DNA from: an uncultured delta proteobacterium
GTDB lineage: Bacteria; Desulfobacterota; Binatia; Binatales; Binataceae
DNA: 64,000 nucleotides
Direction of reading: 5' to 3'
Assembly (NCBI GenBank): GCA_963711565.1
Contig: CAVQEQ010000002.1
Coordinates: 64,001-128,000 of the forward strand
The translations under genes were made by a program, and so were the position numbers. Shown in pieces: positions 18,069 to 43,841 of this stretch. The stretch's first letter is position 1. Each line of letters begins with the position of its first letter. A model generated the notes under the pieces. It did not search any database. It was not told where the DNA came from and saw only the letters and a list, made by a program, of their open reading frames with translations.

Positions 18069-18121
18069 GTGAAACCCACCGTGGGTTTCACGCTTCCTTG
18101 GGCAGGGGTAACCCCTGCACC
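18069..18121 (+). repeat. REP-like family A copy 2
   Basis: GTGAAACCCACCGTGGGTTTCAC plus GCAGGGGTAACCCCTGCAC. Confidence 0.85.
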
Positions 18122-18212
18122 TTAGGGTAGGATGGATTGAATTCATCCGGGGTGGTCTGATTTAAGAGTCTGCACAGGCACCTTCGCCACCGGCTTTTCC
18201 GATGGAGCGCAA

Positions 18213-20318
18213 ATGAACGAGCAAGTTACCCGCCAGATCCTGTGGAACATCCCCGTGCCGTTCATCGTGCTGATGTACGGGCTGCTCGGGCTCCTGATCA
18301 TCGGCTTCATCTACGCCGGCCTCCGCTGGTACCGGCTGGTGAGTCTCGGCGTCGCCGACGATCGCCTCGATCATCCCGTCGAGCGGCTGCTGCTCTCACT
18401 GCGCGACTCGTTCGGGCAGGGCAACGTGATTCGCGAGACCTGGGGCTGGATGCATTACGCGTTCTACGTCGCCTTCGTCGGACTGTTCATCGGCACGACC
18501 ATCGTCGCGATTAACAGCGACGTGCGCGACCTGTTTAATCTCTTCGGACTCGACCTCTACTTCTACTACGGCGACTTCTACCTCTACTTCAAAGCCGCGA
18601 TGGATACCTTCTTCCTCCTGCTGATCCTCGGCGTGCTGATGGAAGGTGCGCGGCGTTCGCTGCGCAAGCCCACCGTGCTGAACGATCCGCCAGCCGACAA
18701 GATGCGCGACAATCTCGAGAACCGGCTCGGCTACTGGTTCCCGATGTCGATGATGGTGCTGGCTGCGGTCACGGGCTTGATGCTCGAAGGCGCGCGCATC
18801 AACGCGGCGCATCCGGCGTTCCACGAATGGGCATACGTTGGGCGCGTCGTGGGACGGATGGAAGGCGCGCTCGGCGCAGGCGTCACGTACCATCGATGGC
18901 TGTGGCTGGTGCACGTCCTGTTCGTGTTCGGGCTGCTGTTCTGTTTTCCGTTCACCAAGCTGCGTCATCTGATTTTCGGCCCGCTGAATCTTTTTTTCCG
19001 CAACATGGGTCCGCGCGGGAGGCTCGCGCCGATCAAGGATTTCGAGAACGCCGAGACCTTTGGCGTGTCACAGGTCGAGCAGTACACGTGGAAGCAATTG
19101 CTCGATATGGGCTCGTGCCTCGAATGTGGCCGCTGCACGATCAACTGTCCCACCGTCAACACCGGCAAGACGCTGAATCCCAAGTATCTCGTGATCGAGC
19201 AGCGCGAGCATCTGCTCGACAAGGCGCCGTTTCTGCTCGCGGCGAAGGCCAACGGCAAACCCGCCGAGGGCGCCGAAGCGCCTGCGTGGAACGGCCCCGA
19301 CATGATCACGCAGGTCGCGACCGAAGACGCGGTGTGGGGATGCACGTCGTGCGGATGGTGCGAGGAGGGCTGCCCCGTCGGCATCGAGCACATCCAGCGA
19401 ATCGTCAACATGCGGCGCTACGACGTGCTGATGGAATCGAGATTCCCGACCGAGCTGACGGGCGCGTTCAAGGGAATCGAGAACCAGGGAAATCCGTGGG
19501 GCCTCGCGCAGGAGAAGCGCGCCGAATGGGCGAATGGGCTGGAGATTCCCGAGATTGCCGAGCTCGAAGATCCGGCGGAGATCGACGTGCTGTACTGGGT
19601 CGGATGCGCCGGATCGTACGACGAGCGCAATCAGCGCGTCAGCAAGTCGTTCTCGGGCTTGATGAAACAGGCGGGCGTCAAGTTTGCGATCCTCGGACGC
19701 GAAGAAACCTGCACCGGCGACCCGGCGCGCCGCCTCGGCAATGAGTACTTGTACGCGACGGTTGCGGCGCAGAACGTCGAAACGCTGAATCGCTACAAGC
19801 CGCGGCGAATAGTCACGCAATGCCCGCATTGCTTTCACAATCTGAAGAATGAGTATCCGGACTTCGGCGGCAACTATACGGTCCTGCACGAAGCCGAGTT
19901 TATCGACGAGCTAATCCAGGCCGGGCGTCTGAAGCCGCGCGGCAAGATCGCTGAGCGCATCACCTATCACGACCCGTGTTACATGGCGCGCCACAATCGC
20001 AAATGGGACAGCGCTCGCAGCGCGCTCGGCGCGATTCCCGGCGCCGAACTGGAGGAGGTCGAGCAGTCGAAGAATCGCACGTTCTGCTGCGGCGCAGGCG
20101 GCGGATGCTTCTGGAAAGAAGAGCACGAGGGTACGCGCATCAATCAGAAGCGCTTCGATCAATTGCAGGAAGCGAAGCCCAAGTGCATCGCGGTAGGATG
20201 CCCGTTCTGCATGACGATGCTCGAAGACGCGGTGAAGTCGCGCTCGCTCGAAGAAACAATGCGCGTCCGCGACCTCGCGGAACTGGTAGCAGAATCCACC
20301 GGCGCTAACACGAAGTGA
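18213..20318 (+). CDS. membrane Fe-S oxidoreductase (FadF/HdrD-like, probable ETF:quinone oxidoreductase)
   Basis: N-terminal TM segments, two CxxCxxCxxxCP clusters, two CCG-type domains. Confidence 0.88.
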   Translation: MNEQVTRQILWNIPVPFIVLMYGLLGLLIIGFIYAGLRWYRLVSLGVADDRLDHPVERLLLSLRDSFGQGNVIRETWGWMHYAFYVAFVGLFIGTTIVAINSDVRDLFNLFGLDLYFYYGDFYLYFKAAMDTFFLLLILGVLMEGARRSLRKPTVLNDPPADKMRDNLENRLGYWFPMSMMVLAAVTGLMLEGARINAAHPAFHEWAYVGRVVGRMEGALGAGVTYHRWLWLVHVLFVFGLLFCFPFTKLRHLIFGPLNLFFRNMGPRGRLAPIKDFENAETFGVSQVEQYTWKQLLDMGSCLECGRCTINCPTVNTGKTLNPKYLVIEQREHLLDKAPFLLAAKANGKPAEGAEAPAWNGPDMITQVATEDAVWGCTSCGWCEEGCPVGIEHIQRIVNMRRYDVLMESRFPTELTGAFKGIENQGNPWGLAQEKRAEWANGLEIPEIAELEDPAEIDVLYWVGCAGSYDERNQRVSKSFSGLMKQAGVKFAILGREETCTGDPARRLGNEYLYATVAAQNVETLNRYKPRRIVTQCPHCFHNLKNEYPDFGGNYTVLHEAEFIDELIQAGRLKPRGKIAERITYHDPCYMARHNRKWDSARSALGAIPGAELEEVEQSKNRTFCCGAGGGCFWKEEHEGTRINQKRFDQLQEAKPKCIAVGCPFCMTMLEDAVKSRSLEETMRVRDLAELVAESTGANTK

Positions 20319-20365
20319 TCAAGACGTGATATGATGATGTCGTACGATACGTGCAAGACAGAGCA

Positions 20366-20536
20366 ATGAAACTGACTCGAGTGTTCAAAAGAGTGCGAGG
20401 CGGATACATCGGGTTCGTCGAAGAACTTCCTGGAGCAAATACGCAAGGTCGTACGTTGAGTGAGACACGGGCAAATCTGAAGGAAGCGATCGCGCTGGTG
20501 TTAGAAACGAATCGCACTTTAGCCAAAGAATCGTGA
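20366..20536 (+). CDS. HicB-like antitoxin (orphan, short)
   Basis: GYIGFVEELPGANTQGRTLSETRANLKEAI. Confidence 0.75.
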   Translation: MKLTRVFKRVRGGYIGFVEELPGANTQGRTLSETRANLKEAIALVLETNRTLAKES

Positions 20537-21378
20537 GCACACTTTCCTCAACTAACGACACGACGCCCGCGCTGCATCCGATGAATCATGGATTCACGTG
20601 GACGCCGGTGCGGGGACCGTTTCGTCTGATCAGGGACGAGCAGGCGCGGTCGTTCAACGAGCGGGGGTTTTTCGTACTCGAAAATGCGATCGATGCCGAG
20701 ACCGTCGCGCGCGTCATCGACGCGATTGCGCCCTTCGAGGCTAAGGCTGAAGAGTTCCTGCGCTCGCTCCCCGACGGCAGGATGGGAATCGCCAAGGCGG
20801 ACGGGATCACGTTCACCGTGCATCTGGTCAAGCTGTCCAAGGTGTTGCGCGAATTCTCGGCCAGCCGCGTGTTCCAGGACCTCTGTCACGATCTGATCGG
20901 TCTCGACGTACGCCTTTACTGGGACCAGGCCGTGTACAAAAAGCCCGAATATCCGAAGCCGTTCCCGTGGCATCAGGACAACGGCTACACCTACATCGAG
21001 CCGCAGGCGTACCTGACCTGCTGGGTCGCGCTCAACGACGCGACCCTTGACAACGGTTGTCCGTGGGTGATTCCGGGCGGGCATCTGCGCGGGACGCTGG
21101 CGCATCGTGCGTCGAAGCTCGGCTACGTGTGTCGCGAGGAGGACGGTCCCGAGGCGCTTGCAGTGCCGGTTCGTGCGGGCAGCGTCGTCGTGTTCTCCTC
21201 GCTGATGCCGCATCGCACCGGCCCCAACGTCACCAGCGGCGTGCGCAAGTCGTACATCCTGCAGTACGCGCCCGACGGCGCACGAATCGTGCAGACCGAC
21301 ACTGCCTGCGACGCGCCGGATCGCCAGTTCCTGATTCTGAAAAACGGCGCGCCAGTCTCGCCGCCGCCGCTTCAGTAG
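20533..21378 (+). CDS. phytanoyl-CoA dioxygenase (PhyH) family protein
   Basis: PWHQD, WVALNDA, NGC, PHRTGPN. Confidence 0.9.
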   Translation: MSTLSSTNDTTPALHPMNHGFTWTPVRGPFRLIRDEQARSFNERGFFVLENAIDAETVARVIDAIAPFEAKAEEFLRSLPDGRMGIAKADGITFTVHLVKLSKVLREFSASRVFQDLCHDLIGLDVRLYWDQAVYKKPEYPKPFPWHQDNGYTYIEPQAYLTCWVALNDATLDNGCPWVIPGGHLRGTLAHRASKLGYVCREEDGPEALAVPVRAGSVVVFSSLMPHRTGPNVTSGVRKSYILQYAPDGARIVQTDTACDAPDRQFLILKNGAPVSPPPLQ

Positions 21379-21381
21379 CGG

Positions 21382-22345
21382 CTACTTCTTCATATCGGAA
21401 AGAAAATCGAGGATCGCCGCGTTCACTTCGGCCGGCTTCTCCTGCTGCGTCCAATGACCGGAACCCTTGACCAGCACGGTCTTGCGCAGGTTCGGCACCC
21501 AGGTCTTCATCCCTTCGGCCATCTCGGGCCGCAGCACAACGTCGCGCTCGGCGGTGATCATCAGCGCGGGCTGCTCGATGCGATCGGTCTGGCCAGGCGC
21601 TCTCCTCCCAGCTCCGATCGATGCATCGATACCAGTTCAGGCCGCCCCGAAAGCCGCTCTTCTTGAACGCGCGCACGAAGACGTCGAAGTCCGCGTCGGT
21701 GAGAAACTTCCCATGCGGACGATCGGCGAATCGATCGAGCAGGCCGCCGCCGGCCGGTCCGAAGACTCCCGGTACTGACTTGCGAATCTCGCTCGGATCG
21801 ATTTCCGGCGGGTCCTGGTAGAAGCCGCGCAGCGAGCGGGCAACGTCGCGTTCGAGTTCCACCTCCGCAACGCCGGGCGTTTGAAAATAGAGAATGTAGT
21901 GGAAGCCGCCCGCCGCCATCGCGCGCATCGCATCGGTGGGCTTTACCGGCGAGCGTGGGATGAAAGGCGTGTTGATGCCGATCACGCGCTCGACGCTGTC
22001 GCGGGCCATCAGCGCGGTATTCCACGCGACCATGCCGCCCCAATCGTGACCGACGATCACGCACTTGCCGATTCCCAGCGCGTCGAGCATGCCGACGATG
22101 TCGGCGACCAGCTTGCGCTGGGTGTACGCGTCGATCGCCGCTGGCGCCTCGGTCTCGCCGTAGCCGCGCTGGTCGGGCGCGATCGCGCGAAAGCCGGCCT
22201 CGGCCATCGCCTTCATCTGATGGCGCCACGAGTACCACATCTCGGGAAAGCCGTGGCAGAACACCACCGGAAAGCCCTCGCCCGTCTCCGCCACGTGCAT
22301 GTTGATGCCGTTGGTGCGGACGAAGGCGTGCTTGATTTCACTCAT
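21382..22345 (-). CDS. epoxide hydrolase-like alpha/beta hydrolase, apparent frameshift near 21596
   Basis: HGFPE, GHDWG; the C-terminus (QPALMITAERD...GHWTQQEKP...MKK*) continues in a shifted frame. Confidence 0.85.
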
Positions 22346-22416
22346 TGCGTGAACCTCGAAATTCTTGTGGCAGCATCGGGACGACTTATGCTCTCGGCTT
22401 CAATACAGTGAAACGC

Positions 22417-22575
22417 TCGCCAGTTCCTGATTTTGAGAACCAGTAAGCGCGTTTCGCCACCGCCGCTGGAATAACAGCAATTCCGCGAACGCCGCCCTAT
22501 GCTTTCCCTCTCGACAACATGACGCTCGTTTGCGTGAACGAGTCCGATCAACATGGAGGAACACCCGATGAGCCG
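22417..22575 (+). repeat. diverged duplicate of phyH 3' end, downstream promoter and start of ferritin-like gene
   Basis: 22417-22474 matches 21321-21378 at 43/58 ungapped; the rest matches 24898-25006 (GCCCTATGCTTT, ACGCTCGTTT, TGGAGGAACACC-GATGAGCCG). Confidence 0.85.
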
Positions 22576-23090
22576 TTCCGACCGCCCGACATTGCGGGTG
22601 AGGTCAACGCGAAACTCTGGGCCAATCCCAGGAATTCCTCGCGAAGAACCTTGGCTGGCTCGAACGCGCCAGCTAGATGCGAGAGTTGGTCTTGAAGCGT
22701 AACCGCCGGTCCGAGCGCGTCGGCGAGTTCGCTCAAATGTTCGGCGAACGACGCGCAAAGCCGTTTGAGTTTCTCATCGAGAGCCTCCAGCGGAGCAAAC
22801 TGGTTCGGGACCGGACGAAGGCGTTCCTGGAAGTTGTGCATTGACTCTAGCACTCTGGCGAGGTCGCTGACCTGCATCGCGAACTTGCGTAACTCGGCAA
22901 ACACGTTTGCCAGCTTGCCGAGCCGCTGCATCGGTTCGCGAAAAGACGCGATACGAGCGAGCTGCGCTTGCAAGGGCTCGATTTGGTCAAAAACTGCCGA
23001 TACCGCCGGTCTGGCCTGAAACGCGTTGGAATCTTCCCGCTCGTTTGAAGGCGGCCCGTATAGGTCGGCTTTGATATCAAACAGTATCAT
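22548..23090 (-). CDS. hypothetical helical-repeat protein, paralog 1
   Basis: Colinear similarity to 23395-23856 and 24166-24510; RBS GGAAGG. Confidence 0.7.
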   Translation of the reverse strand: MILFDIKADLYGPPSNEREDSNAFQARPAVSAVFDQIEPLQAQLARIASFREPMQRLGKLANVFAELRKFAMQVSDLARVLESMHNFQERLRPVPNQFAPLEALDEKLKRLCASFAEHLSELADALGPAVTLQDQLSHLAGAFEPAKVLREEFLGLAQSFALTSPAMSGGRNGSSGVPPC

Positions 23091-23394
23091 CGTGCCTTCC
23101 CTGGTGCTTTTCCCACAATCGCACACTCGCGCGGCACTTCGCGCCAGGAAAAATATGCGGACCGGCGTTCACTTGGCGACAGCGGATGCCGCCGATTCAA
23201 CATCGTCTTAATCGAGGAAGGATGGCAGATTGCCCCAGCATGCCGCGAACGCGCGCGTGCTGCAATGATTCCCGTTTCCCTAGTTTCGCCGGCGTCTCGC
23301 TACGTATCCATTCGGCCTTTTCGCCTGTTGCCGGCATCTCCGGTTCGATTCTCTGGCAGGGGACCACTGACTTACGGGACCGCCTGCTTCGATC

Positions 23395-23856
23395 TTACTG
23401 GGGCAGGTCCGTCGGGCTGCGCTCGAAAATTTGAGCCAGCGCAGAGAATTCCTCGCGAAGAGCCTTGGCCGGCTCAAATTCAGTACACAGATGGGCGAGT
23501 CGATCCTGAAGAGCTGCAGCGGGCTCGAGAGCCGCGGCGAGTTGGCACAGACTTTCGCGGAACGACAAGCAGAGCTGGCTGAGTTCCTGGTCGAGCGTTT
23601 CCAGCGGTGAGAATTGCTTCAACACCTGCTGAAGTTGGTGCTGGAAGGTGTGCATCGGCGCGAGCACTTTAGCCAGGTCCCTGATCCGTTCCTCGAACTC
23701 GCGCAGAGGTTCGAACACGCTTGCAAGCTCAGAGAGCTGCTGTATCGGTTCGAGGATAACTACGATCTGCGCCAACTGCTCCTGGAGCGGTCCGATCTGA
23801 TCGAAGATCGTCGATACCGCCAGACCGGGCTCAAATGAAGTCCGCTGAGTTGCCAT
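23395..23856 (-). CDS. hypothetical helical-repeat protein, paralog 2
   Basis: Proline-punctuated amphipathic repeats (FEPL, LAPM, FSPL, FEPA). Confidence 0.75.
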   Translation of the reverse strand: MATQRTSFEPGLAVSTIFDQIGPLQEQLAQIVVILEPIQQLSELASVFEPLREFEERIRDLAKVLAPMHTFQHQLQQVLKQFSPLETLDQELSQLCLSFRESLCQLAAALEPAAALQDRLAHLCTEFEPAKALREEFSALAQIFERSPTDLPQ

Positions 23857-24165
23857 CTTAATCCGTCCCTGGCTTTTTTGGTGGCTAATCGTTGCAGTCG
23901 AAACTGCAGCGCGCCTTGAGACTAATTGTGGAAGACATAGAGTTCCTATCGTTTTAAGTGCCTACTGAAGTATAAAAATGCGTCAAATAGGCAACACAAA
24001 GTAGCTTTAGCGATCTTGCCAGCATCGTATAATACATCCATCTCTCGCAAGCCGCAGTGTCGCGACAATCCACAGGGGCCAAGTTGCTATTGCTGTGCCC
24101 TGACGCCAAGGTACGAACCAATCGACGGTCAATAAAAGTGGCTGTGGTTGGGAGGATAGACTCGA

Positions 24166-24510
24166 ATGGCAGATCAGCAGATTTCGTTTCACCCCACGCT
24201 CGCGGTAGAGGCGGTGTTTGAGCAGGTAAAGCCGCTTCAAGATCAACTCGCTCAGATAGCGTCGATTCTGGGACCCATAGGACAGCTTTCGGAGCTTGGG
24301 AGTGTGTTTGAACCGCTGCGCCAGTTTGGGGCGGAAATCAGGGATTTAGCCAAACTGCTTGAACCGATGCGCAGTTTCCAAGACCAGCTCCGACAGGTTC
24401 TGAATCAATTCGGCCCCCTGCAAGCTCTGGATCAGGAACTCGATCAACTTTCTGAAGGGTTCTGCCAAAGCCTAAGCCAGCTTGCCGCTGCGCTCGAGCC
24501 GGCAAAGTGA
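24166..24510 (+). CDS. hypothetical helical-repeat protein, paralog 3 (C-terminally shorter)
   Basis: RBS GGAGG; aligns to paralog 2 up to LAAALEPA. Confidence 0.72.
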   Translation: MADQQISFHPTLAVEAVFEQVKPLQDQLAQIASILGPIGQLSELGSVFEPLRQFGAEIRDLAKLLEPMRSFQDQLRQVLNQFGPLQALDQELDQLSEGFCQSLSQLAAALEPAK

Positions 24511-24773
24511 GTGCTGCTTCGGTAAGCGCAGGTGCGAGCATACCAGGCGGAACCACAGGAACAGTCAGAGAGATGCTATCGAAGGGCTTAACCAGTGTTC
24601 CACCCGAACAAACGTTTCAGAAGATTGTTGCGGGGCAGCTCAAGTTCGGGATTTGGGGAACTGTCACCTATACTGACGTTCTGAAGGAGAAACATCAGGA
24701 GAACTTTGAGTACTTTTGGGATCGCAACTTTCCGAACGCTTGCCTGTTCACCGTAGTTGCGCACACCCAGTGA
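24507..24773 (+). pseudogene. probable C-terminal fragment of an unrelated gene
   Basis: No clear RBS; reads like a protein tail (GIWGTVTYTDVLKEKHQENFEYFW). Confidence 0.35.
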
Positions 24774-24817
24774 ATAGAGTCCGACCCCACAATCTCGATA
24801 CCACCGGTACCGATAGA

Positions 24818-24867
24818 CCTGGCTTCTGAAAAACGGCGAACGCGTCTCGCCACCGCCGCAACAGTGA
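24818..24867 (+). repeat. third copy of phyH 3' end
   Basis: Encodes LKNGERVSPPPQQ* versus LKNGAPVSPPPLQ*; 35/44 nt identical. Confidence 0.85.
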
Positions 24868-24902
24868 TAATCGATGGCGCGCGGGCGCTAAGAAAACCGC
24901 AA

Positions 24903-24932
24903 TTGACACGTCCGCGGACGCTGCCCTATGCT
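24903..24932 (+). promoter_or_regulatory. sigma70-type promoter with palindrome in the spacer
   Basis: TTGACA-18 nt-TATGCT; spacer contains CGTCCGCGGACG. Confidence 0.55.
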
Positions 24933-24998
24933 TTGGGTTTCAGGAGACTGAACGCTCGTTTAATGAGAACGGGTTCAAACCAATGTGGAGGAACACCG

Positions 24999-25646
24999 AT
25001 GAGCCGCGATTTTGAATTCCAACAACTGCTGCGAGCCTATCGCAAAGGAATAATTTCGCAGTCAACGTTTGAGTCCGAGATGGCGTCGCTCGAAGCCGCT
25101 GCGCCCACCACCAACGGCAACGGCAATGGCGGCGCCGGCTTCAAGGCGTTCGGCCGCACTTACAAATCCGAGCGCGCGGCAGTGGTCAGTTTTCTCGACA
25201 AGGTTCGCGTGGGCGAGGCCAATGGCGGCGAAGCGTTCGCGGCGTGGGCCGAAGTCTGCACCACCGATTGCATCCGCACCGGCATTCGCATCGTCGCCGA
25301 GCGCGAGGCCTATCATTCGCGAGTCTTCGCGCAGCGGCTGGCGGAACTCGGCGGTGAGGCGCGCGCGATGACGTCCGAAGCCGGGCGCAAGGCAACCGCC
25401 TATCTAGGCAACCCATCGATTCCCGACAACGAAAAGCTGCTCGATTTCACCAAGCGCGTCGGCAAGCCCGAAGATGCGATCAAACCCATCTGCGAGTTCG
25501 CCGCACTGCTGAAGGAAGATCTCTCGACCAAGGAAGCGTTGCGGCTGTTCGCCGAAGACGAGCTCTCGACGGCGAAATGGATCTGGGATTCATGCGCCGC
25601 GCTTAACGCGCCCAGGCGGGATGCGTCAGCGTCAGCATCGATGTAG
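24999..25646 (+). CDS. ferritin-like domain protein with short N-terminal SHOCT-like helix pair
   Basis: RBS GGAGG; GEANG...EREAYH (ExxH)...EDELST; N-terminal YRKGIISQSTFESE. Confidence 0.7.
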   Translation: MSRDFEFQQLLRAYRKGIISQSTFESEMASLEAAAPTTNGNGNGGAGFKAFGRTYKSERAAVVSFLDKVRVGEANGGEAFAAWAEVCTTDCIRTGIRIVAEREAYHSRVFAQRLAELGGEARAMTSEAGRKATAYLGNPSIPDNEKLLDFTKRVGKPEDAIKPICEFAALLKEDLSTKEALRLFAEDELSTAKWIWDSCAALNAPRRDASASASM

Positions 25647-27718: not shown

Positions 27719-27770
27719 GTGCAGGGGTCACCCCTGCCCAGGGAAGTGTGAAACCCACGGTGGGTTTCAC
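27719..27770 (-). repeat. REP-like family A copy 3 (inverted)
   Basis: Reverse complement of the copy 2/copy 4 consensus. Confidence 0.85.
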
Positions 27771-27799
27771 GTTAAATTAAGTAGTCCCATCCTCTCTAA

Positions 27800-28915
27800 T
27801 TACGGTTCCCCACCCTGCTGGAACAATCGCATCAGCTCCTCGACCGTTGCCGGCGCCTTGCGCGCCGTCTCGGTTGTGTCGCGCACGTGATCGACCGACT
27901 TCATCCCGACCAGCGCCACATCCACGCCCGGCGTCGAACGTACGAACTGAACCGAGCGCTGCGCATCCGTCGCGAAACCGCTGAATGCATTCGCGACTAT
28001 TGGCGGCAACCCGCGCGATAGCTGCCCCTGCAGCAGCGACGCGCTCGCGCAAACCGCAAGCCCGAACGCCTTCGCCGCCGCCAGCGTCGTCGCCTTGCCG
28101 GCATGCACGAATTGGTTCGAGCGCGTGACCGCCTCGGGCATCGCGAGATTGTACGGCAACTGGATCGCGCGAAAATGATGCGCGTCGCCGGCGACCTCGC
28201 GCGCGATTCTCATCAGCTCGTCGAGCGACAGCCATCCGCGCTCGGTCTGCGCCGCGCGGAAGCCGTTCCACGTCGCCGTCCCGTACACGCCGATCTTGCC
28301 GTCGGCCACCGCAGTTTCAAGGAACTCTAAAATCGTCGCGATGCGCGCCAGGAACTCTTTGCGCTCGATCGCTTCGAGCTGAGTCTCGGGATTGTGAATA
28401 TAGTAGATGTCGATCGTCTCGAGATTGAGATTCTTGCGCGACAGTTCGAGCATCGTGCCGATATACTTCGGCGTCATGCAATGCGACCCGTCGACCAAAT
28501 CGGCGGGCGCGACGATCCCCGTCTTCACGTAATGCTCTTCGAACCACGCGCGCGGACTGGCGGGCACCTCGCCGTCAAACGTGATGTAACCGCCCTTGGT
28601 CGCGACGACCACCTGCTCGCGCGCGATCTCGCCCGCCGCCACCAGCTCGCCAATCGCCGTCCCGATATTCCGTTCGCTGCGCTGGAAGCGGTAGTTCACC
28701 GCGGTATCGATCAAATTGATCCCGCCGCGGATGCTCGCCTTGATCGCCTCCTCGTAAGCGCGATCGGTCTCGTCGTCGGGCTCGCCCAGGTAGGTGCCAA
28801 TTCCGATCGATGAAACCGACACTCCGAGCGCCGGCCGGAAATTTCCCGGCAGCGTCGGAAAGCGGCTCGCGTATGCTGCGCTAGCGTCGGCGGTCGCGCG
28901 CCCTTTGAGCATCAT
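27800..28915 (-). CDS. aldo/keto reductase
   Basis: GIGTYLG, IDTAVNY, ATKGG, DIYYIHNPE. Confidence 0.88.
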   Translation of the reverse strand: MMLKGRATADASAAYASRFPTLPGNFRPALGVSVSSIGIGTYLGEPDDETDRAYEEAIKASIRGGINLIDTAVNYRFQRSERNIGTAIGELVAAGEIAREQVVVATKGGYITFDGEVPASPRAWFEEHYVKTGIVAPADLVDGSHCMTPKYIGTMLELSRKNLNLETIDIYYIHNPETQLEAIERKEFLARIATILEFLETAVADGKIGVYGTATWNGFRAAQTERGWLSLDELMRIAREVAGDAHHFRAIQLPYNLAMPEAVTRSNQFVHAGKATTLAAAKAFGLAVCASASLLQGQLSRGLPPIVANAFSGFATDAQRSVQFVRSTPGVDVALVGMKSVDHVRDTTETARKAPATVEELMRLFQQGGEP

Positions 28916-34643: not shown

Positions 34644-35603
34644 ATGTCCGACCTTCAACACAAATTCGTCAACACTAACGGCATCCGGATGCATTACGTC
34701 GAGCAGGGCGCGGGGCCGCTCGTCGTGCTGTGCCATGGATGGCCCGAGTCATGGTACTCGTGGCGGCATCAGATTCCCGCGCTCGCGGCGGCGGGCTTTC
34801 GTGTCGTCGCGCCCGACCAACGCGGCTACGGCCAGACCGACGCGCCGGCGCCGATCGAGTCGTACAACATCCTGAACCTGGTCGGCGATATCGTCGGGCT
34901 GGTCAACAGCCTCGGTGTCGAGTCGGCGGTGATAGCAGGTCACGATTGGGGCGCGCCGGTGGCGTGGAACTCGGCGCTGCTGCGTCCCGATATCTTTCGC
35001 GCGATCGCGTTGCTGAGCGTTCCGTATCTTCCGCGCGGTCCCATCCGTCCGACCGACGGGATGAAGATGCTCGCCGGCGATCAGCATTTCTACCAGCTCT
35101 ATTTCCAGGAGCCGGGCAAGGTCGAGAAGGAACTCGACGCCGACCCGCGCCGCTCGATGGCGATGGTCCTCTATTCCGCGTCGGGCGACGCACCGCGCGA
35201 CGGTGAGTTCTCGTTCCTGTTCCCCAAGACGAAAAAGTTCATCGAGACCGGGATGGTGCCCGACAAGCTGCCGCCGTGGCTGACGGAAGCCGATCTCGAT
35301 TTCTTTGCGGGCGAGTTCAAGCGTGCGGGCTTTCGTGGAGGCGTCAACTGGTATCGCAACGCCGATCGCAACTGGGAGCTGACGCCTTTCCTCGACGGCG
35401 CCAGGCTGCGCCAGCCCGCAGTGTTCGTCGCCGGCGAGCATGACGTGGTCGGCAAAATGATCCCCGGCGGCTATGAGTTGGCGGGCGCCTTCACTCCGAA
35501 TCTGAACAAGAAAGTGATAGTCCCCGGCGCCGGCCATTGGATCCAGCAAGAACGGCCCAAAGCGACCAACGAAGTCCTGATCGAGTTCCTGAAGAGTCTG
35601 TAG
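34644..35603 (+). CDS. epoxide hydrolase (EphA-like)
   Basis: HGWPE, GHDWGA, YQLYFQ, GHWIQQE. Confidence 0.92.
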   Translation: MSDLQHKFVNTNGIRMHYVEQGAGPLVVLCHGWPESWYSWRHQIPALAAAGFRVVAPDQRGYGQTDAPAPIESYNILNLVGDIVGLVNSLGVESAVIAGHDWGAPVAWNSALLRPDIFRAIALLSVPYLPRGPIRPTDGMKMLAGDQHFYQLYFQEPGKVEKELDADPRRSMAMVLYSASGDAPRDGEFSFLFPKTKKFIETGMVPDKLPPWLTEADLDFFAGEFKRAGFRGGVNWYRNADRNWELTPFLDGARLRQPAVFVAGEHDVVGKMIPGGYELAGAFTPNLNKKVIVPGAGHWIQQERPKATNEVLIEFLKSL

Positions 35604-41816: not shown

Positions 41817-42977
41817 CTACTTGCGGGTTTCGAGGCCCATGCGGCGCGCGATTATCACCTTCATGATTTCGTTGGTGCCGGCGTAGATCGATTGCACCGC
41901 TGCGTCCGCATAGTCGGTCGAAACCGGGTACTCCATCATGAAGCCGTAGCCGCCGTGGAGTTGCAGGCATTGGCTGGTCAGGCGCTTCTGCAGATCGGTG
42001 GTCCACCATTTTGCCATGCTGACTTCGGCGACGATGTCATCGCCGCGCACGTGCGCTTGCAGCAGCTTATCGACAAAGGCCTGGCCGACTTCAACCTCGG
42101 TCATCATCTCGGCGAGCTTGAATTGCGTATTTTGAAATTCCGCGATCGGCTGGCCAAACGCGCGGCGATTCTTGCAGTAGGCGATCGTGTCCTCGAGCGT
42201 GCGGCGGCAACTCGCCATCGAGCCGACTCCGATGCACAACCGCTCCTGCTGGAGTTTCTCCATCAGCATCTTGAAGCCCGCACCCTCTTTGCCGAGCAGG
42301 TTGCCGGCGGGGACGCGGCAGTCCTCGAAGAACAGCTCGCTGGTGTCCTGGCCGCGCAGCCCGAGCTTGTCGAGCTTGCGGCCGCGGACAAAGCCGGGCG
42401 CGCTCGCGTCAACGAGCATCAGGCTGACGCCCTTATGCGGCGGATTTGCCTTGGGGTCGGTCTTGCAGACGACGATGACGAGATCGGCGATCTGGCCGTT
42501 GGAAATAAAAATCTTCGAGCCGTTGATCACGTAATGGTCGCCGTCGCGGCGCGCCGTCGTCTGCACGGCGGCGAGATCGGAGCCGGTGCCCGGCTCGGTC
42601 ATCGCGATCGCGAGGATAATCTCGCCGGCGATCGCGCCGGGGATGTAGCGGCGCTTCTGCTCCTCGTTGCCGAAGCTGGTGATGTAGGGCATGCAGATGT
42701 CCGAATGCAGCGACATCATCAGGCCGTGCGCGCGCACGCGCGACAGCTCTTCCATCACGATGGCGTCGTAGATGAAATCCACGCCGCCGCCGCCGTATTC
42801 GGCGGGTGCGTTGGCGCCGAGGAAGCCGGCCTCGCCCATCTTGCGCCAGCTCGCGCGATCGCTCATCCCGGCGCGATTCCATTCGGGCACCTTGGGCTCG
42901 ATCTCGGCATCGACAAAGCGGCGCACCTGCGCGCGGAACATCTCGTGCTCTTCGGTAAAAATATCTCGTCGCATCAT
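41817..42977 (-). CDS. acyl-CoA dehydrogenase
   Basis: AMTEPGTGSD, GSKIFISNG, QLHGGYG, IYAGTNEIMK. Confidence 0.93.
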   Translation of the reverse strand: MMRRDIFTEEHEMFRAQVRRFVDAEIEPKVPEWNRAGMSDRASWRKMGEAGFLGANAPAEYGGGGVDFIYDAIVMEELSRVRAHGLMMSLHSDICMPYITSFGNEEQKRRYIPGAIAGEIILAIAMTEPGTGSDLAAVQTTARRDGDHYVINGSKIFISNGQIADLVIVVCKTDPKANPPHKGVSLMLVDASAPGFVRGRKLDKLGLRGQDTSELFFEDCRVPAGNLLGKEGAGFKMLMEKLQQERLCIGVGSMASCRRTLEDTIAYCKNRRAFGQPIAEFQNTQFKLAEMMTEVEVGQAFVDKLLQAHVRGDDIVAEVSMAKWWTTDLQKRLTSQCLQLHGGYGFMMEYPVSTDYADAAVQSIYAGTNEIMKVIIARRMGLETRK

Positions 42978-43027
42978 TGTGGCATCTTCGTGTTGGCGCG
43001 CATCGCGATCAAGCCCGGCAGATCGTA
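42974..43027 (-). repeat. diverged duplicate of GFA gene 3' end
   Basis: YDLPGLIAMRANTKMPQ* versus YDLPGLIALRTKTNMQR* (43377-43430); 43/54 nt identical. Confidence 0.85.
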
Positions 43028-43038
43028 TCTCGGATGCC

Positions 43039-43063
43039 AGTGGGGCGGGCCGCCGTGCCCGCC
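43039..43063 (+). repeat. REP family B copy 3
   Basis: Identical to 16436-16460. Confidence 0.85.
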
Positions 43064-43071
43064 GGTGACAT

Positions 43072-43353
43072 CTACGCAGCCTTAAAAGATCGCACCCGGA
43101 TTCGATTTACGCGCCTACGCGCCTGCCAAAGATCGTAAGCCATCTGCATTCCGAGCCACGTCTCCGGACTAGAGCCGAATGCCTTCGAGAGCCGAATCGC
43201 CATCTCGACCGAGACCGCCGCTCGCTCGTTCACAACGTCCGAGAGGGCCTGGCGTGTGACGCCCAAAGCTTTGGCAGCATCGGTCACCGAAAGCTTCAAA
43301 GGCTCCAGACACTGTCGCCGTACGATGCCGCCGGGATGAGGAGGATTGTGCAT
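43072..43353 (-). CDS. higA: HigA antitoxin (orphan)
   Basis: MHNPPHPG, LGVTRQALS, EMAIRLSKAFG, MQMAYDLW. Confidence 0.88.
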   Translation of the reverse strand: MHNPPHPGGIVRRQCLEPLKLSVTDAAKALGVTRQALSDVVNERAAVSVEMAIRLSKAFGSSPETWLGMQMAYDLWQARRRVNRIRVRSFKAA

Positions 43354-43376
43354 AGCTACGGAATTCGGTTTCGAGA

Positions 43377-43841
43377 TCATCTTTGCATGTTGGTTTTTGT
43401 GCGCAGCGCAATCAACCCCGGCAGATCGTATTGCGGGAGATCGTCGGTGATTTCAAACCATGGCGGGTTCAGCTCGATGAAAATGTGTTTATCGGGTTTC
43501 ATCCCGGGATCGTCATCGACAAGACCGGCAGGGATTTCGAGCGTCCCCGAACGGCCGCGCGTCCTCTGCGTTTCGGGATTCGGATTTGGCACCGGCGAGC
43601 CGCATCGGCTGCAGAAGGACACGCGGTATGCCGGCGGCTCGCGCAAAATCGGAGCTTCATAGGTGGTGATCAGGTCTGCGCCCGCGACCAGTCGGAAATC
43701 TTCGATGCGCACGTACAGCCCGGCGAAGAATGCGGAGCCGGTGACTTTGCGGCATCGCGTGCAATGGCACAGCTCGAACGGGCCGGCAGGTTTGGTGAAC
43801 TCGAAGTGTATGGCGCCGCAGAGACAGCTTCCGTGAATCAT
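43377..43841 (-). CDS. GFA (CENP-V) family protein
   Basis: GSCLCG, CHCTRCRK, FCSRCGS. Confidence 0.9.
   Translation of the reverse strand: MIHGSCLCGAIHFEFTKPAGPFELCHCTRCRKVTGSAFFAGLYVRIEDFRLVAGADLITTYEAPILREPPAYRVSFCSRCGSPVPNPNPETQRTRGRSGTLEIPAGLVDDDPGMKPDKHIFIELNPPWFEITDDLPQYDLPGLIALRTKTNMQR

Follow-up and report, generated by a model that had tools for sequence, protein, structure and literature searches.

Integrative islands that enter at the 3′ ends of genes leave an intact gene, followed by the cargo, followed by a displaced 3′ fragment; the locus described here has a comparable layout, although it contains no integrase and has no fixed crossover point. Entry of DNA without an integrase is known from homology-facilitated illegitimate recombination (HFIR), which has been reported in S. 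pneumoniae, A. baylyi and P. stutzeri and is rare in E. coli (PMC3240628, PMC2884548). By the measurements given in PMC3240628, homologous recombination exceeds HFIR in frequency by a factor of 100 to a million, and HFIR was judged to be perhaps too infrequent to have shaped the genome of E. coli; its laboratory products usually delete about as much DNA as is inserted. What we propose below shares with HFIR a homologous crossover on one side and the lack of an integrase, and the joint on the other side may likewise be a short match. It differs in that the joints lie just inside the end or start of the anchor gene and a remnant survives, whereas in the laboratory a comparable length of DNA is usually lost; furthermore, HFIR was shown by genetics in the laboratory, and here the process is read from sequence. 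Sequential displacement has also been described at T6SS loci of V. cholerae (PMC5361080) and for rhs C-termini (PMC2935791), where HFIR or circles were proposed. As in those arrays, successive insertions appear to have displaced old gene ends downstream to form a stack, here of two tails and two promoter/start remnants. Yet the arrays are toxin/immunity modules with variable tips, whereas the anchors here are ordinary genes (phyH, the ferritin-like gene, clpA, rng, pth, lptG) that go on encoding nearly the same product, the cargo bears no relation to them, and stranded remnants include promoters with gene starts besides tails. Likewise, the minimal mobile elements of Neisseria place variable cargo between conserved flanking genes, but the account of their exchange by homologous recombination describes double crossovers and no remnants (PMC3787668), whereas here remnants lie at the joints and one cassette occupies six sites. 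The mechanism itself has laboratory precedent and has been put forward to explain toxin arrays; for housekeeping genes, a literature search covering mostly open-access main texts found no account of genome-wide tail remnants.

The scars in the stretch of 64,000 nucleotides from an uncultured soil bacterium analysed here (the window) are probably, though by no means certainly, the leftovers of several interspecies transfers, each using homology at one end and an illegitimate, short-match joint at the other. The locus consists of these parts:

20533–21378, + strand: intact phyH-family dioxygenase (Pfam PhyH, E 1e-32; orthologs 75–90% identical in amino acids); the final 58 nt are tail copy 1
21382–22345, − strand: alpha/beta hydrolase of epoxide-hydrolase type (Pfam Abhydrolase_1; the label "epoxide hydrolase" comes from the first-pass annotation), a resident gene
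22346–22419, + strand: P'', a third, truncated copy of the ferritin promoter, with the −35 lost and the −10 and downstream motif kept
22417–22474, + strand: phyH tail copy 2, a displaced remnant, matched by profile
22475–22575, + strand: P', a decayed ferritin promoter, RBS and first codons (profile E 7.9e-16)
22576–22600, − strand: last trace of a katG-like (catalase-peroxidase) scrap, within the paralog 1 tail and out of frame
22548–23090, − strand: helical-repeat paralog 1, with a C-terminus made of katG scrap and antisense ferritin RBS; pN/pS 0.48
23395–23856, − strand: helical-repeat paralog 2, 153 aa, proline-punctuated helices
24166–24510, + strand: helical-repeat paralog 3, 155 aa in relatives but interrupted here at residue 113 by a 1410-nt gap
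24507–24773, + strand: last 88 codons of membrane protein X (~500 aa), its head inside the 1410-nt gap
24773–24823, + strand: right flank belonging to the cassette, common to copies at unrelated sites (G003, G036, G062, G067)
24824–24858, + strand: copy 3 of the phyH tail, running directly into sequence from upstream of the promoter, probably by a hydrolase deletion
24859–24998, + strand: intact promoter (TTGACA-18-TATGCT, 24903–24932) and RBS serving the ferritin-like gene; type as in G009, G063 and G070
24999–25646, + strand: ferritin-like protein, predicted four-helix bundle, a mosaic with a likely crossover near +62

The three phyH tails lie on the same strand, at 21321, 22417 and about 24810–24824. 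When the whole 4.84-Mb genome was searched with a profile of 18 orthologous tails that did not include the one in the window, copy 2 was matched at E 5.5e-8, copy 3 was matched at E 6.4e-6, and, a phyH paralog on another contig aside, the next match had E 0.14. The first-pass annotation had noticed that copy 2 continues into a decayed promoter, RBS and ATGAGCCG with a disrupted −35 box, and this is borne out; the box is deleted in the window and present in G027. It had placed copy 3 at 24818–24867, where the tail is real but its extent was drawn too widely: what precedes it is flank of the cassette itself, and the "QQ" and stop of its reading align upstream of the ferritin promoter, not to phyH. 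It missed P'', which was found at E 2.6e-4 within the loci and 0.0037 genome-wide, with the alignment in agreement, and which is more decayed than P'. P'' and tail 2 share TCG at their joint, and P' and the cassette share GCCG. Such matches of 3 and 4 nt occur by chance at about 6% and 2% of joints, and a third joint is patchy. HFIR would be expected to leave 3–10 bp of microhomology at the illegitimate joint, and matches this likely by chance count somewhat against it.

Misassembly of strain variants, a concern raised with the original observation, could produce such repeats, and the assembly does carry blemishes that look private to it. An extra base at 21595, probably an assembly error, frameshifts the hydrolase and is absent in 8/8 runs compared, and 1410 nt are missing at 24498–24503, a joint crossed by none of the pieces listed, with the missing DNA present in contigs X1 and X2. 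The scars are another matter: among the contigs listed, those of three other studies (X2, X6, X7) span copy 2 and those of two (X2, X6) span copy 3, each with 0–2 differences, the best match X1 having been left out of the count as a possible source. Contigs from independent studies thus cross both scars, with their tails, decayed promoter, RBS and ATG, and antisense C-terminus, which refutes misassembly and leaves it a negligible probability.

It is informative to consider the order of genes in relatives. The first-pass annotation held that phyH followed by the ferritin-like gene was ancestral and that two successive events brought in the cassette and the hydrolase. In the 28 genus loci counted (two half-frameshifted genomes retained; G030, at a contig end, G037, of another family, and three paralogous ferritin loci excluded), the gene directly upstream of the ferritin promoter is the hydrolase in 20 and phyH in one, and in three trees, built from ferritin, CCG and DUF4412, parsimony reconstructs the hydrolase as the root state. 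On this adjacency and root state, the hydrolase is resident and not cargo. Direct phyH–ferritin adjacency does exist, in G021, where the allele is intact, but as a derived deletion. In favor of the original order are this genome and also G027 and G033; in the latter two an intact phyH runs into P' with its ATG and then paralog 1, fossilizing a phyH–P'–ferritin allele whose former existence is supported; moreover, the last event may have put a hydrolase allele into a chromosome that lacked one. Nonetheless, P'' shows that the hydrolase arrived with its usual ferritin promoter, and together with the adjacency and root state this makes the phyH–ferritin order very improbable as the ancestral one. 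The phyH–promoter fusions instead arose where the hydrolase was deleted, and these deletions differ in breakpoint, with three or more distinct ones. Two events are likewise too few, since the sequence records a minimum of four joints plus one deletion. The two deepest genomes (90 and 98% complete) had no match to phyH DNA.

Comparison with orthologs suggests that the repeats derive from different alleles and are not decayed copies of one site. P'' scores best against G029, G001 and G004 (44–38, versus 24 for the window's own promoter), and P' is closest to the promoters of G017 and G021 (108 and 90, versus 65). Tail 2 has 11 differences from the tails of G004 and G036 and 15 from the window's own; tail 3, across 35 nt, has 3 from G036 and G070 and 5 from the window's own. 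That the nearest relative of each scar is in another species, and not the copy in the window itself, argues against local duplication at insertion (a long target-site duplication, replication template switching or a trimmed tandem duplication) with neutral decay of the spare copy, an explanation that would account for cargo flanked by direct repeats. Tails 1 and 2 both read TTC where 20/20 orthologs have TAC, as local duplication would have it; this private state otherwise needs conversion, or both alleles within one species. The shared TTC also counts against one-sided recombination.

The cassette itself is a 3.6-kb, integrase-free unit of four genes, the three helical paralogs and membrane protein X, with ragged ends. 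It occurs in 13/47 genus genomes at 88–95% DNA identity and at six sites: seven copies are at the phyH/ferritin locus, with three left and four right junction types, and six are elsewhere, at five distinct sites by flank comparison. In G063 the cassette replaces the hydrolase. In G020 it lies beside a 234-nt copy of a gene tail in which 14/19 differences are at third positions (p 4e-4 against one third; 0.014 against 46%, the expectation under duplication plus decay), and in G067 there is a 113-nt tail repeat. Counting against one-sided recombination, no flanking repeat was found within 7 kb at 3/6 of the copies elsewhere, nor in G064. A transposon or IS with a short identical target-site duplication was considered and rejected on cargo content and repeat length: the cargo has no transposase match, and the repeats are 30–234 nt long and differ as alleles do. 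Pfam (E 1e-6) found no integrase or transposase in 29 cargo ORFs plus X, and the genome's nine tyrosine-recombinase, one resolvase and one IS110 matches (the genome-wide IS search covered IS110) all lie outside the 14 inserts.

Similar leftovers exist at 13 other genes of this genome. Among 480 short direct repeats, 283 multi-copy and 44 within-gene ones were dropped before counting; of the 39 that pair a gene with intergenic DNA, 15 cover the stop codon (8% expected, p 1e-7). These represent 14 genes, including clpA, rng, pth and lptG, and the remnant is always downstream; many repeats are only 30–60 nt, and the inserts are 0.35–7 kb. At rng and clpA, 42 loci contain 12 remnants that start 30–138 nt before the stop (eight different starts from −30 to −138 at rng, −49 to −137 at clpA) and end at the stop or within 7 nt of it. 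As to whether the scar rate is particular to the genus, rng remnants occur in 8 of the 43 genus genomes that gave a full match, in 0/12 of family f4 (Fisher p 0.18), and in 0/24 of family f9, to which the query tail gave a poor alignment. The same HTH cargo is present in four genomes whose remnants start at different points; these are two sister pairs, so later erosion may account for the starts as well as independent re-joining at rng.

These remnants bear on two of the explanations. Changes found only in the remnants of rng and clpA number 27 synonymous and 11 non-synonymous (p 2e-8 against 27%), which largely refutes local duplication; the coincidence of repeat ends with stop codons also speaks against it. 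The pooled codon bias of the genome's 15 repeats does not reject it: third positions hold 57/108 changes, which is not significant against 46% (p 0.09). A null of one third had been tried and set aside as too lenient, about 46% being fairer, and the polarized 27:11 test therefore carries the weight; local duplication is left as quite improbable. Site-specific integration at gene ends, with an integrase acting in trans or since lost from the islands, would fit the island-like layout and the nine tyrosine-recombinase matches of the genome. Against it are the 14 unrelated target genes, the lack of a recombinase in any insert, and starts that differ among genomes at one gene; variable starts at rng and clpA and the ragged cassette ends likewise speak against a fixed attachment core at the crossover, and we regard such integration as more improbable still.

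One-sided recombination would account for the locus as follows, in an order and direction of events, and with a delivery by natural transformation, that we infer. The resident locus would have been phyH–hydrolase–promoter–ferritin. The cassette, with a katG scrap from an earlier home, would have arrived upstream of the promoter, as in the G063-like state. DNA carrying cassette, promoter and ferritin-like gene may then have entered a hydrolase-less phyH–P'–ferritin allele, with its anchor in the ferritin-like gene and its joint at ATGAGCCG of the recipient; P' would be left behind as a remnant, and paralog 1 would acquire a different end. Next, phyH–P'–cassette DNA would have entered a standard allele, using phyH or sequence above it as anchor and the recipient's phyH tail as the place of the joint; this would strand tail 3 (the G027-like state), and the hydrolase behind it would then be deleted. 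Finally, recombination of this allele with a standard phyH–hydrolase–P'' allele, joined at P''/tail 2, would yield the window arrangement. The parts, the junctions, the states in relatives and the allele differences on which this scheme draws are observed. Deletion of recipient DNA of about insert size, usual though not obligatory in HFIR, is not seen; recipient DNA is mostly kept, including remnants of its tail or promoter, which counts against the scheme, with G063 the exception.

The anchor in the ferritin-like gene can be examined directly. Up to +62, 20/24 informative sites resemble those of the cassette clade, as against 45/120 beyond; with groups chosen after seeing the trees, a permutation gives p 0.0015, and the gene appears to be a mosaic with a homologous crossover in the flanking anchor. 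At rng, divergence of the window genome's intact gene from G069 rises from 5.0% to 13.5% at −289 (0/1000 permutations), three times the length of the 95-nt repeat. This result is weakened by the greater variability that all genomes show at the 3′ end of rng, and by an earlier run, with a wider range, that gave another breakpoint. Both observations weigh on circular intermediates, in which a gene end and its cargo are circularized, by end joining or by recombination between repeats, and a single crossover in the shared end pushes the old end downstream. Circles predict no foreign tract outside the repeat, whereas donor-type sites reach +62, with P'' already ending some 48 nt ahead of the ATG, and the foreign tract of rng extends to −289; many of the repeats are, in addition, only 30–60 nt. 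Yet circles would explain duplication instead of deletion, variable starts and ends at the stop, conversion during the crossover would explain the shared TTC, and the genome has Ku, which could make circles; they have been proposed for rhs (PMC2935791) and were seen with linear DNA in E. coli (PMC3240628). We consider circles unlikely, while giving them real weight. Matches to comEC, dprA, comM-type and mutS genes are present; the competence genes also matched in 8–11 of 14 controls and prove nothing.

If one-sided recombination is correct, the scars would make the natural rate of HFIR countable from genomes alone and would show by what means cargo lacking an integrase can come in while essential genes stay whole. 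Programs that look for islands by their integrases or tRNAs would overlook this route. The phyH/ferritin locus is an unusually complete example: anchors in either direction are represented, relatives still alive preserve intermediate states, and one protein has a two-scar tail. A broader view is speculative, and we hold it to be possible rather than likely: one-sided interspecies recombination might be a main route of gene gain in this soil genus, gene ends and starts serving as self-renewing landing pads, and cassettes without mobility genes recording former homes and gaining C-termini, with competence and ComM or Ku steering the joint to the anchor edge and X acting as a tethered anti-repressor of XRE regulators.

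The proteins themselves offer few names. The helical paralogs have no Pfam or NCBIfam match over the cut-off, and their model is extended and all-helix (pTM 0.30), with no PDB fold match and unnamed Atlas neighbours. The ferritin-like protein likewise has no Pfam or NCBIfam match; its model (pLDDT 83.5) predicts a four-helix bundle of ferritin topology, the best structural match being a Dps-like protein (Z 15.6, rmsd 2.4, 139 aligned), while every Foldseek match is at E 0.01 or weaker. Of the ligands expected in a di-iron set, E73, E103-x-x-H106 and E188 are candidates, invariant in 13 sequences, and a second histidine is absent from the invariant columns. As first proposed, paralog 1 takes its C-terminus and stop from the antisense strand of the scar, ending in GGRNGSSGVPPC across the antisense RBS with its stop at 22548–22550, where its homologs P0007 and P0011 end in LRSPASPE and LRSPVSPE. 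The katG-like scrap in the same tail had been missed; it is longer in cassette copies at other sites, where tblastx (E 1.3e-11, 63% identity) matches it to residues near 620–660 of a 736-aa ORF that is a Pfam peroxidase. The scrap is older than the P' scar, and the tail of paralog 1 is built from two successive scars.

The repeated phyH 3′-ends described in the first-pass annotation are real, and its observations stand as a whole, although its interpretation survives only in part. A profile of orthologous tails run against the whole genome recovers tail 2 (E 5.5e-8) and tail 3 (E 6.4e-6), and misassembly fails as an explanation for the repeats, both scars being crossed by contigs of other studies. 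The copies of the tail and of the ferritin-like gene's promoter (P, P′ and P″) lie as follows:

21321–21378, tail 1 of phyH
22346–22419, P″, a truncated promoter copy, absent from the first-pass annotation
22417–22474, tail 2 of phyH
22475–22575, P′, a decayed promoter copy
24824–24858, tail 3 of phyH
24859–24998, P, the intact promoter

As had been described, tail 2 runs on into a remnant of the promoter, RBS and ATG that lacks the −35 box, and paralog 1 of the helical-repeat genes has its C-terminal end on the antisense strand of this remnant. The damage to P′ differs by genome: the −35 box is deleted in the window (22475–22510), the −10 region is deleted in G033 and the spacer is lengthened in G027 (loci L042 and L055). 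P′ is oriented so as to read antisense into paralog 1 and may therefore be selected against. A palindrome-like motif, AACG-CT-CGTT, lies just 3′ of the −10 box of the ferritin-like promoter (24949–24962), is conserved in most of the genus and has further copies near 22409 and 22522; it is possibly a repressor site.

The gene order is phyH (+), an epoxide-hydrolase-type gene (−), paralog 1 (−), paralog 2 (−), paralog 3 (+), an 88-codon fragment (+) and the ferritin-like gene (+). Because the hydrolase frameshift at 21595 is missing in 8/8 runs compared, and the DNA missing at a 1410-nt gap (24498–24503) is present in two runs, it is likely that in the population the hydrolase is intact, paralog 3 is complete and a membrane protein of 500 aa, X, is encoded. 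The description of the last gene as ferritin-like holds on its predicted fold; sequence searches gave no support for the ferritin label. Nearby, a lone HicB-like/UPF0150 ORF, under the Pfam cut-off and found in only some relatives, lies between the CCG-domain gene and phyH (20351–20536); a hydrolase paralog (about 34660–35390; C2:98665–99387) with ~72% DNA identity lies 13 kb downstream; and a REP-like 52-nt palindromic element has two copies at 94% identity (about 18070–18125 and 27750–27800).

It is in the ancestral order that the earlier interpretation fails. It had placed phyH directly before the ferritin-like gene and made the hydrolase a later addition. Among 28 loci (25 genus genomes plus three further loci reached via the cassette), the ferritin promoter adjoins the hydrolase in 20, the cassette in five, CCG in two and phyH in just one, and by parsimony the hydrolase comes out at the root of three trees (ferritin, CCG and DUF4412), each of which covers a single locus and is open to recombination. 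Fusions of phyH to the promoter have three distinct breakpoints (G021, the P′ allele and tail 3), which fits repeated deletion. In four genomes phyH is sited elsewhere, and a DNA query found no phyH match in the two deepest genomes.

The cassette itself (three paralogs and X; 88–95% identity) occurs in 13 of 47 genomes, seven times at this locus and six times elsewhere, at five sites by flank comparison, G020 and G064 having one in common. The cassette has ragged ends; junctions at this locus fall into three types on the left and four on the right. None of its four genes is a recombinase, and site-specific integration fits poorly. A rough count gives pN/pS of 0.23–0.48 for these genes. Where cassette copies lack the ATG junction, the 3′ end of paralog 1 bears a katG-like scrap; since the window retains ~25 nt of it, the tail of this paralog is two scars deep. 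A 57-residue domain of X, also in short X relatives (L042:12856–13062; the corresponding part falls in the window's gap), aligns with the domain at the C-terminus of XRE/HTH_3 regulators (hhalign: E 5e-12, probability 97.5). The window genome has four proteins with such a domain (Pfam HTH_3). In G032 an XRE gene adjoins the array, and in G062 one lies close to the cassette. As a lead, X is a candidate membrane-tethered anti-repressor. Several genomes have arrays of two to four pairs in which a helical-repeat gene and a short X-like gene take turns (L099, L103, L105, L106, L107), suggesting a functional pair.

By sequence affinity, the promoter and tail copies are different alleles: P is nearest to types in G009, G063 and G070, P′ to G017 and G021, and P″ to G029, G001 and G004, and tails 2 and 3 are nearer to other species' tails than to tail 1. 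Local duplication, which would derive the copies from the resident sequence, fits poorly. In G020 a 234-nt tail copy adjoins the cassette and differs mostly at third positions. Counting against the different-allele reading is a TTC common to tails 1 and 2 where 20/20 orthologs have TAC; it fits conversion or two alleles in one species, and the last event may have run in either direction.

Each junction in turn would be accounted for by incoming DNA that recombined homologously on one side and formed an illegitimate joint on the other. Such DNA may have entered by natural transformation, as comEC, dprA and comM-type matches hint, these being common in non-competent genomes as well, and joints would gather at gene edges, where between-species similarity stops and insertion leaves the gene unharmed. 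The main rival, a circle integrated through one crossover, yields the duplication naturally, and Ku is present in the genome; however, one-sided recombination predicts foreign tracts exceeding the repeat, and these are found at ferritin and at rng, each with caveats. At ferritin the affinity switches near +62 (p 0.0015, with groups chosen after the trees were seen).

The scar stack works like displacement driven by homology-facilitated illegitimate recombination (HFIR), a likeness of working that does not by itself make it HFIR in the strict sense. HFIR is a laboratory-established process (PMC3240628; PMC2884548). Stacks built by displacement have been described at rhs (PMC2935791) and at V. 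cholerae T6SS loci, where HFIR is proposed (PMC5361080), and minimal mobile elements exchange without scars (PMC3787668). In literature mostly without subscription journals, we found no account of genome-wide gene-end remnants at ordinary genes.

A scan with heuristic gene calls for short direct repeats spaced within 20 kb gave 480; of these, 283 were excluded as multi-copy and 44 as lying within a gene. The stop codon is covered in 15 of 39 gene-versus-outside pairs, against 8% expected; these represent 14 genes, among them clpA, an Rne/Rng ribonuclease, pth and lptG, with the remnant downstream in every case. Nothing in the varied cargo matches an integrase or transposase, and the genome's known recombinases lie outside the inserts. 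An unpolarised pooled codon-position test in this genome was not significant against a null of duplication and decay (~46% third-position changes). For rng and clpA (21 loci per gene, ten of them chosen for a second BLAST hit), twelve remnants exceed a score cut-off of 40 (mid-gene controls ≤31) and start 30–138 nt before the stop; their remnant-only changes are 27 synonymous versus 11 non-synonymous, where neutral decay expects 27% synonymous. Displaced tail copies (78 and 35 nt) of the CCG-domain Fe-S oxidoreductase gene (18213–20318) occur in G015 (L053) and G027 (L055), and at 42973–43431 (C2:106973–107431) a 55-nt copy of the end of a 166-aa gene brackets an HTH_3 gene.
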